Origin: Euglena gracilis
Taxonomy: Eukaryota
Length of the DNA stretch: 64,000 bases
Direction: 5' to 3'
Assembly (NCBI GenBank): GCA_039621445.1
Contig: CP154954.1
Coordinates: 32,527,455-32,591,454, forward strand
In this document: positions 19,162-29,900 of the stretch, one piece after another
How positions within the stretch are numbered: the stretch's first letter is position 1
Layout: every line of letters starts with the position of its first letter
Made by a program: the position numbers and the translations under genes
The notes under the pieces: generated by a model
Told to the model about the DNA's origin: nothing
What the model saw: the letters and a program-made list of their open reading frames with translations, nothing else
Databases searched by the model: none

Positions 19162-21182
19162 CCAGACCCCCCCCCCCAGTGAACGGTTGGCCCAGGTCTC
19201 CCACCGGTGGCCCCACCCTGGTGCTGGCCTGCGGCCGCCCCCATTGCCCCTGGCCCGCGTGTCCGCCGCAGGTCTGCCGGGCCCCAACTCCCTCCCCCTC
19301 CCCCCGCCCTGGGAAGCTGCCGTGAGTGCGGGCGACAAGCCCAGGGGACAACTTCCGAGAACGACAAGTCAGTCAGTACGGCCAAGGTCGCAGGAGGGGG
19401 GGGGCTCACAGGGTCGAAAACTTCCGGGGGGGATATGTGCTGGTTTCCAGCGACAAACAGGAGGACACCAAGAAATCACATTCATTTTTTTTTCAGTTTC
19501 TTTTGCAAATTAACCCACTTTACATTTACAGAGAAGGTTCACAAGCAAAGATAATTGTCAATTTTTGTTGGGACAGCAAAGGAAAGGTGAACGATCATCG
19601 TTCACCATAATGGTCATCATAAAAGTCATAGTGGGATGGAATTCTTCTCGTTAAAGGAAGGCAAGAGAGATTGCAAACACAGTTCAAACTGTTTTGTTTT
19701 GTTTTGCATTTTAATGTGGGGGAGGGGGGCCATTTTTTTTCAAACCGACCCCGGGGTCCTCTGGGCAACTATTTGCTGACTTGGCATGGGATCTGTCTCC
19801 CACTCTTTATTCGCCGGCATATGGATGGAAGGGGCAGGAGAAAATGATTCGCTGGCAGCAACAGGATATGACAAAGGTTGGACCTTGCCATATCGTTTTC
19901 CTTGCTTGCCGTCACCTCCTCTGTTCCAGAGGCACGGGACCCCAGCAGCCCCATAGCCCCCCTCTCTGGGTCGCCTTACTGCGTGGATGCCGGTTGTCCC
20001 AACTTCCATCGCCAACGTCATCTTACGCAGTGGGGGTGGGGGGGTGCTCGTTTTGCGAGTTGGGGGATCCATTGTTTTCCAGCGTGCCACTACCATCTTT
20101 AATTGTTTCATTTTTGTTTTTTGCTTTTCGCCCTTCTGTTGTTTTGCTTAGCATGAAATTGTTCTTCTTTTTTCAGCAATCATTCATTTCCTAACAGTCC
20201 TCTTCCAAATTTTCTCAGTTGAACAGGTCTGGTGTTGGTTTTTTTTTTTTGTTGGTTATTCCGCTTTTGTTAGGGGTTTTGTTGTTCTCGCGTTATGCTT
20301 GTGGGGCGGAGGAGTTTGTTGGCGCGATCTCTCTGTCGAAAGGTGACTGTTGTTGGCCAGAGCTGGACCATCCGTGCCAAATGTCCTCAACCTCCCATCA
20401 CCTTCATGGAGCACATGGGTTGCCCATCTGCTCGGGTGGTTGCTGGCCACGTTTTTTCTTTGGCGTGATGCATACCAAAACAAAAATTGGTTCAAATGGC
20501 TTGCCCTCGCAAACGTGGTGGTCGCTGGGGGGATTCCTGCCTCATGGGAGGAGGGGCGAGTCCCCCCTCATGGATTTCAATCCCCACCCGTGATAAGGAC
20601 GAGTGAGGGAGATTCCTCTCTAAAAAGCACCACGGCCACCAGGCGCTTCCAATAATTGGGCACTCCGTAAATTTGCAGATTGAGTCGATTTATTTCCAAT
20701 TGAGCTGTGATGAAAAGAAGCTTGATGATACGTTAAAAAAACAAGTCACTCTGTTCAGTTTATAAATTGTGATGAGTGCGGTAATGGCGGTGAATCACAA
20801 TTTTTAGTGCATGAGCAAAACCAAAAAAAATGATTTATTTCTTCTTGTACTCATTTATCCCGCTCAATTTATCAATGAAATTGTCACCGCTGTGACAAAA
20901 GCAGAGCAAAAGAAACAAGACCCTCGCAGGGAAATTGAACCAGTTCTGTTGAAAGCCCAGTTCTTCGATAATTTTCACCTCCGAAACCTTTGGTCGAACC
21001 GTTGCAGTGCAAGCTCCCATTTCTGGCTTGTTCAATTCCCCTCGACTGTGTTCACGAGGTTTGTTGCAGATCACAGTCGCATGCAACGATTGTCCAAGCT
21101 CTGCCCTCAGCCCCAGGAACCTACCAGGTGCCCCAGCTGGTGTGGATGTGTGCGCCCATGTTAGTTTTGCCGCCCTCCCAGT

Positions 21183-21541
21183 CAGACAACTGCTTAAGCA
21201 CTGTCCCACCCCCCCCCCCCCGGGGGGTGGGTGACTGGTTTTTTCAAAGTGACTGACTGGTTTTGGGCCGGGACCCCCCCCCCCCCCCCCCCGGGGGGGT
21301 CGGCCAGGAGTGGGCAAAAGTGGCTTGAGTGACCCCGGCGCCGAAGGCGCCGGAAAATTTTTTTTGGCCTAAAATGGCCTAAAGTGACTGGAAAGTGGCC
21401 GTTTTTCTGAGTGGCCGACCCCCCCCGGGGGGGGGGGGGGTAGTGACTGGCTGCTTTTTTGAAAATGAGTGACTGACTGGTTTTTAAAAAAGTGGAGTGA
21501 CCCCCCTCCCCCCCCCGGGGGGGTCGGTAAGCAATTGTATG
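21183..21541. mobile_element. hAT-like MITE
   Basis: TIRs CAGACAACTGCTTA / TAAGCAATTGTATG; perfect 8-bp TSD CTCCCAGT at 21175-21182 and 21542-21549; internal C-run/G-run palindromes. Confidence 0.85.
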
Positions 21542-26900: not shown

Positions 26901-29900
26901 GCTCGTTTGCTTCTCGTCCTGCCTGGCTGGCTTTCGCTTGGGCTTCGCATTACTCCTGTACATGTGGGGGGTATTCTGTTCAAAATAGAAGCGCCCCCTC
27001 TGCCTCCCCCCTCCCCGCCTCGCCTGCCCCCGAGCGGCACTCCAGCTGACGCTGTTCCCGGACGAGGCGCCGTACCTCCACCCGCTGGACTGCAGGCTGC
27101 CTGCTTTTTTTTGTCGGCCCCGATCCACCCCCAGTGAGTGTGCAAATTGATGTGCTTTTCAACGGGCAATCCCGCCTCTCCCACCCCACCCCCAGCCGGG
27201 GGGGGGGACCGAAAGGCGGGCAGGTGGCGAGCTGGAGGTGTGCGGCGGGTGGCTGACGTCGCTCACCCACCTCCTCGCCTACGAGGGCCGCATCGTTCCC
27301 CTGCGGCCCGCCGGCGTCCACCCTGGCCCTGCCTTGTTCTTGTCCATGGAGAAAGATGTTGTCTTATGTGAAAAAAAAACAGGCGTTATATGATGAATGC
27401 CGCGAAGAGGATTCTTGTTGAAAACCGCACAAAGAGATGTGCAGTACACATACATGCAGAAAGATGTGTGGAACAAAAGAGAAGGGCAGGCAGCAGCAAG
27501 GCACAACGTCGGACCAGGGGATTGAAAACCGCAATTTTCCCACATTTTTCGCAATTTTTCTGGAATTTTTTTCCCTTTTCTGTGATTTTTCCACAATTGT
27601 TCCGCAATTTCTGCAATTTCCATAATTTTTCCGCAGTTTCTCCGCAATTTTCGAAATTTTCTCTCAATTTCTCTGCAATTTCAGCAAATATCCGGCAAAT
27701 TTTCTGCAATTTTCCTGACATCAATTTTTGTTTTGCTTTCTCGCATTATTTTAAGAAATGAGCAACGGGCAAAGGCATCTCAAAACACTTTTCAGTCGTC
27801 CACAAACTTTCCTTGGGGCCCAGTGTGGCGGTTCCAGGCAGTGCCAGGAGCCACGTGCCCCTCGGGGCAATCATGCAGGCGATGCACCGCACCAGTTTTA
27901 TTTATCGCGATTTCCAGAAGGAGTTTGTAGCGCCGGTGGTGACGGACGACCCTCACTTGTTGAGCAGCTTTCCCCTCCAGGCCCGGCTAGAACACTTCAT
28001 CAATGGCCACAGCGATGTGCTCGTGCTGGTCTCCAAACCAGGTGTGCTTTGAATGTGTATATTGTGGTTGTGGATGGGTCGTTGCTTGGGTATGTGTACC
28101 TTATTTTGTGTTATTTCCCATGCAGCTGTGGGATGTTGGTTTGCACATCGTGCTGCCCCGTCCGTCCACAGGGATGGGCAAGACCTGCAGCGCGCTGTGG
28201 ATGAGCCGGCATGTTGGCTGGCTCGGCCGCCTGTGGCTGTTTGTCTCTCTGCCAACCGTCGACAAGCCCTTCACACGCCACAATTGGGGCATGGATTGCA
28301 GAGGGGCTCTGTCATATATTACATATTTGCATGAATTGGCTGAACACAATTTGCTGCAGTGTGGCATGTTGCATCTGCATGTCGCATTGTGACATGTAAA
28401 TGCGTACATTGCACTGCACTGCATTGAATCGCATTTGTTTGTTTCGTTTCATCTCGCCACAAGTCGGCACAAACCATTGTGGTGTGTTTGACAAAACAAT
28501 GATGGATTCTGGCACAAAATCATGCCATGCATTTGATGATTCTACACAACGATCCACAGCAAGTGTGGTGGTCTTTTTTTCCCCTTCTTTTCTCAATTCC
28601 CAATCGCCTGCTTCGGAAGTGCAGGGCACGGCCTCCCCGCCGTGCCCCACCCCCGCCCTGGCCAACCACGTGTACCAGCTGCTGGGGCTGCAGGCCGGTG
28701 AGCCGGCGTGCGGGCAGCTCCGGCGGCAGCCCCTCGTGCTGGTGCTGGACAGTGTGGATGAGCTGAAGCGCAGCGGCAACGACATGCTGGAGAGCTGGGG
28801 AGGTGGCTGCCCGCTCCCCAATGCTCCCCAATTCATCGACAGACCGAGGCTGCTGGCATTGGTGGTTCAGCGCTGCGGAGACCACAGGAGTGGGGATGGA
28901 AACCACCGACACTCGAAACTCTCGCGGTCATCCTGACACCCAACGAAATGCTTGTCGTCATATACCATGGACCGTTGCCCAAAGCCACAATCCACGTGCA
29001 GGTGCGTCAGCCAGGGGTTTTCTTTGCCTGAGGGGGGGGGGGTGTACAGCCAGCCAGCACCTCCCAGCCGGGCTGCGGACCCCCTCCCCCCGGGTGAAAA
29101 TGTGATATAAAGGTCCAGCCCGACAAAGCTGGGCTGGACCGGAAAATTTTTGGCACGAAGTGCCAAATGTTTTTGAAAGAAAAATGCCAAAGGTGGCCAA
29201 AACAGCATTTTTGAGTGGTTTTTGAATTTCACCTCCAAATTTTGGCTGAAAAAATGACAACCCAGCTGGATTTGGGCTTTTTGGGGCTTTTTTGGGTACC
29301 CACCAGGTCCAGCTCCCAGCCGGCCAGAGCGCCCCCCCCCCCCCGGACCCCCCACCCTAGGGGGGGTCCAGCCAGCACCTGTTTCCAGCCGGCCCATGGG
29401 ACCCCCCGGGGTCCTCAAGAAAACCCTTGGTGTCAACTCTTTCCCTTTCTCATGGCTGAGTATCCCCCACGTATAACCTCCCAAGAGAGGTTATCTAGCT
29501 TGTTGCCTGGTCCTGAAGGTTGGAACGGGTTTCGGTTCCGGCGTCCATTCCTAACCTTTAAATCCCCCAACGTTGGAATCCGCTTCTTCAGAATTCCAAC
29601 CTTCCGAACCCCACAACGCACTTCGGCCCCCGGCGCGGCGGCCACCTCCGGGCGGTGGGCGCTGAACGGCTTCTCGGCGTGGAACCTGAAGCTGGTGGTG
29701 ACCTGCCGGCAGGAGGACCTCCCGCTGTACCGCCCCTGCTTCGGGCCTGCCCCGACCTGGCTGTTCCTGCAGGGCTTCTCCCCCTTCGAGGCGGAGGAGT
29801 TCGTCCTGAAGCAGCTGGAGCGTCAGAGCCCGGCCGGGGGGTCAGCCCTCTTCCCGGACCCACGTTCTGCAGAGCCCCCCCCCCCCCCGAGGAACCCCAC

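Follow-up and report, generated by a model that had tools for sequence, protein, structure and literature searches.

The stretch of DNA considered here, a window of 64,000 nucleotides, is GC-rich and eukaryotic with fragmented reading frames, and its source, judged from its coding sequence, is Euglena gracilis or a very close relative, because the protein of EG_transcript_15947 maps onto it collinearly with 209 of 213 residues identical. Two genes in the window are interrupted by nonconventional introns, and the window also holds sequences resembling MITEs (miniature transposable elements with inverted repeats), flanked by target-site duplications (TSDs) of 8 bp. An earlier note on this DNA had pointed to a numerical agreement between the two: 3 nt precede and 5 nt follow the terminal helix of a nonconventional intron, and 3 + 5 is the length of the duplication. 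One intron, at 56394-56920, looks like a fresh example of a transposon-derived intron, and the question of how far this case can be extended to the other introns is weighed below.

Two genes and the geometry of their introns

Gene 1 lies at 18814-51765 on the + strand, both coordinates being provisional, and is a large gene with a P-loop (GMGKT) and WD40 repeats that reach about 51.7 kb. The RNA evidence covers 18001-38000 and comes from one raw RNA run together with three runs of contigs whose RNA nature is a guess; results based on joints in this interval rest on the 15 joints listed out of 207. Contigs and reads describe one + strand transcript of about 4.8 kb, with 12 nonconventional and 4 GT-AG introns. 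Ten of the 12 are given by listed non-GT-AG joints (18857-19225, 25886-26051, 26200-26506, 26713-27031, 27094-27228, 27320-27852, 28797-29653, 29840-30069, 30109-30397, and 30520-31010), one is implied by contig pieces (28281-28653 or, shifted by 1 nt, 28282-28654), and one is read through a micro-exon (20355-21108), all of them on the + strand.

Gene 2 (54651-59070, + strand) has 8 exons that encode a 213-aa protein, and the EukProt entry EG_transcript_15947 of E. gracilis is the transcript protein mapped to it. None of its 7 protein-mapped introns can be GT-AG; all are nonconventional with the 3/5 geometry. Their removal is supported by the mapping of a transcript-derived protein, whose source transcript may be another allele.

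The set of 19 nonconventional introns, defined by the RNA contigs, the raw RNA reads and the one mapped E. gracilis transcript protein, bears out the geometry described earlier: all 19 have an allowed register in which pairing begins at +4/-6, leaving 3 nt before and 5 nt after the terminal helix. In the first 18 introns (the 19th fits the geometry too), the pairs at +4/-6, +5/-7, and +6/-8 form in 18, 18, and 17 cases, compared with 6, 6, and 5 at the three positions outside, where the register was chosen among 1 to 9 allowed slide positions per intron, a choice that in part builds in the abrupt step at +4. Of the first 14 nt, 7 to 12 are Watson-Crick complementary in the 19 introns, against a cross-intron mean of 5.4; the same measure gives 1 to 8 for GT-AG introns and 10 to 13 for the ends of the MITEs. 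The exon base that follows the intron is a purine in all 19 cases, and the one just before it is a pyrimidine in 17.

The published splicing code, N3-CDG...CH'G-N5-6/R (the slash marks the border with the exon, here and below), is found with N5 in 11 of the first 18 introns, and CDG/CH'G ends occur in the 19th as well. This proportion is close to that in E. agilis, where 61.2% of introns fit the code (PMC12501133). The spacers of 3 nt and 5-6 nt were established there by knock-in mutagenesis, independently of this window, and in the same assay splicing was lost when CAG or CTG was altered at a single base (PMC12501133). The introns of the window share with the euglenid nonconventional introns of the literature (PMC3935182; PMC4770533; PMC11282704; PMC12501133) non-GT-AG borders, CAG and CTG at +4-6 and -8 to -6, spacers of 3 and 5 nt, a purine at the start of the next exon, terminal inverted repeats (TIRs), and direct repeats at the junctions.

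A TIR-element intron and the MITE-like elements

The nonconventional intron at 56394-56920 (+ strand, gene 2), which the earlier note did not list, coincides with a TIR element at 56397-56915. This element is 519 bp long, and its ends, CAGGCAGAATTTCA and (in reverse complement) CAGTCAGAATTTGA, match at 12 of 14 positions. The flanks, AGCCCGAC and GGCCCGAC, agree at 7 of 8 positions, and the identical run, GCCCGACC, is 8 nt long. Divided at the splice sites the flanks read AGCCC/GAC and GGCCC/GAC, so the repeat stands in exactly the predicted 5/3 register, and the intron has the form GAC-CAG...CTG-GGCCC/G, a full match to the published code. Nine splice positions are compatible with the sequence, because the identical run is 8 nt, and none of the nine is GT-AG. 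Inside, the element has the layout of the MITEs described below, with a variable terminus, a YTTMAG-like motif, and CnGn palindromes that resemble the MITEs' own; the terminal helix forms in the minimum free energy fold. Excision of this intron and the six others of gene 2 yields 213 codons and a stop with one copy of the repeat left, and the protein junction ...RPDQPDPRRRALC... is identical in the spliced product and the EukProt protein. Splicing of the copy in the window is a deduction from this agreement. As read from the sequence, the intron is a TIR element plus one copy of its TSD, with the repeat spanning both junctions, which is the pattern by which introner-like introns are recognized.

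The five MITEs named in the earlier note are present with the flanking repeats that it gave. The element at 21183-21541 (359 bp) is flanked by CTCCCAGT at 21175-21182 and 21542-21549 (8/8), and its ends, CAGACAACTGC.../CATACAATTGC..., which are of the CAG...ATG type, are complementary at 12 of 14 positions. The 447-bp element at 25073-25519 has CCCCAGGC on both sides (8/8) and CAT...ATG ends (CATACATCTCTC..., TIR 13/14). Flanks matching at 6 of 8 positions occur at 29012-29429 (418 bp; flanks GCGTCAGC/GTGTCAAC, ends CAGGGGTTTTCTT/CAAGGGTTTTCTT) and at 21781-22222 (442 bp; flanks GTCTAGAT/GTCTCGCT, ends CAC...CTG, TIR 10/14). The fifth, at 44118-44548 (431 bp; flanks TTCTGTAG/TTCTGTAC, 7/8), has a CAG-type terminus (CAGGGGTTTTCTTAAGG-type) at its 3' end only, its 5' end starting with GGGACCC. 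The common layout of the MITEs is 11-14 variable terminal bases, a CTTAAG-like motif, and then CnGn palindromes and shared internal blocks. Two elements were added to these five, namely 56397-56915 (7/8) and a second kind of TIR element at 11654-12609, with the TSD TCATCAAC (8/8) and GG-starting ends (GGGAGCCTTTAAC / GGCAGCCTTTAAC). Elements with 8-bp flanking repeats therefore number seven in total: three at 8/8, two at 7/8, and two at 6/8. None of the five MITEs, nor 11654-12609, is assigned a strand.

The chance level of such pairs was estimated over the whole window. Among 846 inverted-repeat pairs at 12/14 or better, flanks of at least 7/8 at the true position occur in six, three of them 8/8, compared with 0, 0, 1, 1, 1, 3, 2, and 4 pairs in eight shifted-flank controls and 0, 0, 1, and 0 in four Markov-shuffled windows. 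The excess is modest overall, and it appears in the stricter scan only; with TIRs of at least 10/14, TSD flanks were not in excess over the shifted controls. In the three 8/8 cases the repeats are complex and the bodies resemble those of MITEs. Two others of the six are less informative, since 44137-44521 is an internal repeat of the element at 44118 and 37172-38014 is probably due to chance.

MITE sequence also occurs in further introns. The gene 2 intron at 58662-59038 (+ strand), with a 13-bp stem from +4 and flanks of 5/8, is homologous to the MITE at 25073 over most of its length (77-79% over 76 and 97 nt), with the 5' ends in register. The RNA-verified gene 1 intron at 18857-19225 (TGC CAG...CTG GTGCT) is mostly MITE sequence, and its body aligns with the MITE at 21781; it would be composite or nested, because a 3' terminus of MITE type is found some 65 nt inward from its 3' end. 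A stretch of 54 nt is common to intron 54819-55796 and the element at 11654. A further nonconventional intron is predicted at 24638-25638 on the + strand (AGC CAG...CTG TCCCC/A, flanks 5/8), for which no joint was found among the 15 listed.

The five MITEs themselves give no test of intron origin, because those with readable context sit in larger introns: the MITE at 29012 lies within the RNA-verified nonconventional intron 28797-29653 and the one at 25073 within the predicted intron 24638-25638. Those at 21183 and 21781 are downstream of the exon starting at 21109. A test for a reading frame running across each MITE was rejected, since intronic MITEs also pass it in GC-rich DNA.

Several observations concern the MITE families apart from their relation to introns. 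An old copy of the 21781-type MITE, at 18352-18743, has the 3' end CAGGGCGTCGCTTTAACGACCCC (reverse complement) and no recognizable TSD. MITE sequence (20669-22002, 24671-26004, 34009-36009) reaches 10-100 times the k-mer depth of the host gene's exons in the contig runs guessed to be RNA, for example 16,504 at 21247 versus 148.7 for the transcript contig; MITE-family RNA, or DNA within the guessed-RNA runs, is abundant. Raw RNA reads with long poly-C tails pile up by the hundreds at the C-runs 21274-21293 and 24450-24468, and a joint that goes back 3195 was rejected as a sign of circular RNA, being a low-complexity artefact of such reads at C-runs. A metagenome scan for the MITE end motifs gave no hits, and a second one gave 120 stretches, 80 of which were returned as loci, with no similarity to three of the MITEs.

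Origin of the introns

The explanation that best fits these data, and one we hold to be somewhat probable, is that nonconventional introns arise from TIR elements with 8-bp TSDs and are removed together with one copy of the TSD. A non-autonomous TIR element that makes an 8-bp TSD would land in an exon, and its inverted ends would pair in the pre-mRNA. Cuts by the nonconventional machinery 3 nt before and 5 nt after the helix would then remove the element and 8 flanking nt, that is, one TSD copy, and the message would retain TSD positions 1-5 of the first copy followed by positions 6-8 of the second. Two further conditions would apply to the insertion: its ends would have to be C-D-G...C-H-G, and position 6 of its TSD a purine. 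Under this explanation transposition would have created the introns, and most of the older ones would have lost their TSD by drift. That the relation of 3 + 5 to 8 is causal and not a coincidence seems somewhat more likely than not. The explanation is partly supported: the window offers one good example, 56394-56920, and one MITE-homologous intron, 58662-59038, and outside the window there is one published case. The latter is gapC intron 4 of E. agilis ACOI 323, described as the sole known within-species gain, with "eight nucleotide direct repeats" (PMC4770533).

The suggestion that any insertion of this kind is a ready-made intron holds in its arithmetic, since N3 + N5 equals one 8-bp TSD copy and this follows from the published code too, and is too strong in its generality. 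A purine stands at TSD position 6 in six of the seven elements, and the required CDG...CH'G ends are present in one of the seven (56397). Both perfect-TSD MITEs, called the youngest, end in CAG...ATG and CAT...ATG, and the published mutagenesis suggests that such copies would not splice.

These end sequences count against a transposon origin of the introns in general, and so do several further points. The comparison proposed in the earlier note, in which the last 5 exon nt and first 3 intron nt are matched with the last 5 intron nt and first 3 exon nt, was made for the 19 introns of the window, and the expected excess was not seen. The matches out of 8 are 3, 3, 2, 2, 3, 3, 4, 3, 3, 3, 2, 2, 2, 3, 7, 1, 3, 5, and 5, with a mean of 3.11, against a mean of 2.87 in 306 cross-intron pairings (permutation p = 0.24 for the sum of matches). 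A general TSD trace is absent from the 19 introns, 16 of which stand at 4/8 or below, and most of the introns lend no support to a transposon origin. The 7/8 in this series belongs to 56394-56920. The residual similarity of 5/8 that the earlier note gave for 24638 (CGCCCAGC/TCCCCAGG) is present in the sequence, and an intron that it placed at 52315 could not be reconstructed. Positions 5, 6, and 8 are those at which the junctions most often match. A C/R-N-C consensus is common to both junctions of the 18 introns, with C at position 5 in 14 and 11 of 18, R at position 6 in 16 and 18 of 18, and C at position 8 in 12 and 9 of 18. Such a consensus is expected from a duplicated target site, and the preference of a cutting enzyme could equally explain it.

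The favorable case itself is subject to reservations of the same kind. The evidence base is one window intron (56394-56920) and one published intron, and the 8-nt repeat of the published intron was read by its authors in 2016 as a product of double-strand-break repair (PMC4770533). The transcript protein that matches gene 2 differs at 4 of 213 residues, and the transcript behind it may belong to a different allele or strain, perhaps even to one that never received the element. The element at 56397 has a single 23-nt match elsewhere in the window, and the fold of the whole intron is not unusually stable (z = -0.70).

Many of these points can be read as coincidence. MITEs would then be ordinary debris in introns, the 3/5 rule would follow from the architecture of an RNA-processing enzyme that counts from the end of a helix and would be unrelated to TSD length, and the repeat at 56394-56920 would be accidental or have been filled in during double-strand-break repair. 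Such a reading accounts for the position of the MITEs with readable context inside larger introns, for the near-control mean of the flank matches, and for a permutation in which a maximum of at least 7 is reached with p = 0.16. It is also in keeping with the short junction repeats common to both intron classes of E. agilis, found in 84.4% of introns, and with the break repair proposed for the 8-nt gapC repeat (PMC12501133; PMC4770533). We nevertheless regard coincidence as rather unlikely. The element at 56397 joins a 12/14 TIR, MITE-like CnGn palindromes, and an 8-nt repeat that stands in the expected register, and the longest identical junction run among the 306 cross-intron pairings is 6 nt. 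In addition, a repeat of 8 nt likewise occurs in a young intron of a different species, an independent case (PMC4770533), and intron 58662-59038 is homologous to a perfect-TSD MITE.

The reverse direction, in which the MITEs are mobilized nonconventional introns whose circular RNA or DNA copies re-insert with an 8-nt repeat made by the insertion and no classical transposase, can draw on the release of nonconventional introns as full-length circles (PMC11282704; PMC12501133), on the likelihood that a circle would join N5 to N3 and so rebuild the 8-nt target between abutted inverted ends, on the high k-mer depth over MITE sequence, and on the lack of a transposase among the window's reading frames, but it is very improbable, as the ends of the perfect-TSD copies (CAT...ATG) misfit the splicing code, so that their excision as introns is unlikely, and neither a reverse-transcriptase signature nor poly-A was seen.

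Origin from inserted TIR elements has parallels in other eukaryotes. Introner elements of Micromonas and Aureococcus are reportedly spliceosomal introns derived from DNA transposons, as Huff et al. are said to have described in 2016. They resemble the proposed process in that a TIR element with its TSD enters an exon, one of the splice junctions uses the TSD, and the element is removed with one copy so that the message is restored. They differ in their use of GT-AG sites and the spliceosome, whereas the distance to an RNA helix fixes the cuts in the introns considered here, whose borders are noncanonical. The introner elements of Amoebophrya are closer in being noncanonical introns with inverted repeats of 8-20 nt and direct repeats that overlap the boundaries; their direct repeats are 3-5 nt, the lineage is different, and a fixed 3/5 spacer rule is not reported in the accessible portion of that work (PMC7789003).

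A MITE origin of euglenid introns was proposed in 2014 by Milanowski et al., whose paper states that euglenids then had no known transposable elements (PMC3935182), and the proposal was repeated in 2024-2025 (PMC11282704; PMC12501133; PMC12621601; PMC11170887). A 2024 review calls CAG/CTG a TIR and the junction repeats "TSD-like" (PMC11282704). A paper equating 3 + 5 with TSD length was not found in the openly accessible literature, to which the search was confined, subscription papers lying outside it. With the MITE origin and the "TSD-like" repeats already published, the 3 + 5 = 8 arithmetic is a sharpening of a known hypothesis and apparently unpublished. Relative to the accessible text of the euglenid work, the additions are the equation of 3 + 5 with TSD length, concrete families of elements with 8-bp TSDs, and an intron that coincides with one of these elements.

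This relation bears on how euglenid nonconventional introns, which make up about 70% of E. agilis introns (PMC12501133), originate and are removed. It gives a MITE hypothesis that has been verbal since 2014 a quantitative form, open to testing on existing data: junction repeats should be bounded at 8 nt, lie in the -5 to +3 register, and be strongest in young introns. The window supplies concrete 8-bp-TSD element families and one intron resembling a fresh case for this purpose. The same relation predicts which insertions an exon would tolerate, namely those that end in C-D-G...C-H-G and have a purine as the sixth base of the TSD, which is relevant to genome engineering in Euglena. A broader claim, that euglenid nonconventional splicing is a precise excision at the RNA level matched to one class of 8-bp-TSD transposon, whose cut positions exist because they add up to the TSD length, is in our judgment improbable. 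If it were true, the two inverted ends would meet in the excised circle across a restored 8-nt target, much as at a transposon-circle junction; the splicing machinery might descend from, or have co-evolved with, proteins that recognize transposon ends; and such introns, which number in the hundreds of thousands, would mostly be fossils of insertions by one class.

Superfamily of the elements and other features of the window

Elements of the hAT superfamily typically start with CAG or TAG, make 8-bp TSDs, and carry a terminal 5'-YARNG in their short TIRs. The assignment of the window's MITEs to hAT, made in the earlier note, is unsupported by the present data. None of the 106 open reading frames (ORFs) of at least 140 aa in the window has a transposase domain, and YARNG fits 4 of 11 CA-type ends (CAGGG three times and CAAGG once), the others being CAGAC, CATAC (three times), CACGG, CAGGC, and CAGTC. 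The 8-bp TSD of the CA-type elements agrees with hAT without being specific to it, and Merlin is a documented family with TSDs of this length. That the elements are hAT is doubtful, though still a tenable assignment.

Membership in Merlin or another superfamily with 8-bp TSDs (P, Mutator, Zisupton) is somewhat unlikely; the intron link may hold under it, and the part of the earlier reading on hAT ends would be wrong. Merlin elements have 8-9-bp TSDs and TIRs ending in GG, and E. gracilis has two described families of them, which make 8-bp TSDs and have kept their DDE motif intact (PMC8101967). The element at 11654-12609 has such GG termini (GGGAGCC/GGCAGCC) with its 8/8 TSD and is the only one of its kind in the window, as the six CA-type elements do not have this pair of termini. 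No IS1595-type transposase is in the window. The outermost 11-14 nt differ among copies while the subterminal parts are shared, which is atypical for one transposase family, and no paper linking hAT to Euglena was found in the openly accessible literature. Against Merlin or a similar superfamily, the intron-like elements, including that of 56394-56920, start with CA and not GG, and their CAG starts, 8-bp TSDs, and the four YARNG ends are of the hAT kind.

Searches around the two genes added little to their description. The WD40 exons of gene 1 are too diverged for self-similarity to give further exon borders. A protein search with the exon 36591-37262 matched only an unspliced read-through product, one with 24412-24636 found no match, and a representative protein search with 56921-57277 matched an unspliced genomic ORF. 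The protein cluster look-up of P0010 returned a singleton.

Several introns have features of their own. The intron between two WD40 exons at 37807-38497 has GT..GG or GG..AG borders, depending on a slide of 1 nt, and is neither a clean GT-AG intron nor one with an obvious 3/5 helix. The nonconventional intron 26200-26506 contains an (ATTT)n array of 81 nt at 26287-26367. Contigs start at 26201 in two runs, and the letters that precede this point end in a T-run, CG, and about 11 unmatched bases, which could be spliced-leader-like or the end of a paralogous transcript. In gene 2, the neighboring nonconventional introns 57397-58204 and 58307-58568 share a repeat of about 175 nt in opposite orientation (57600-57776 and 58349-58515, 74% identical).

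Upstream of both genes, a (GT)n microsatellite of 119 nt lies at 14542-14660, and positions 1-8775 form a tandem array of at least nine units of about 894 bp (298 codons), which are 94-100% identical with a GC content of 0.67. The array is broken at 5924-6512 and contains long ORFs in several frames without a Pfam match.

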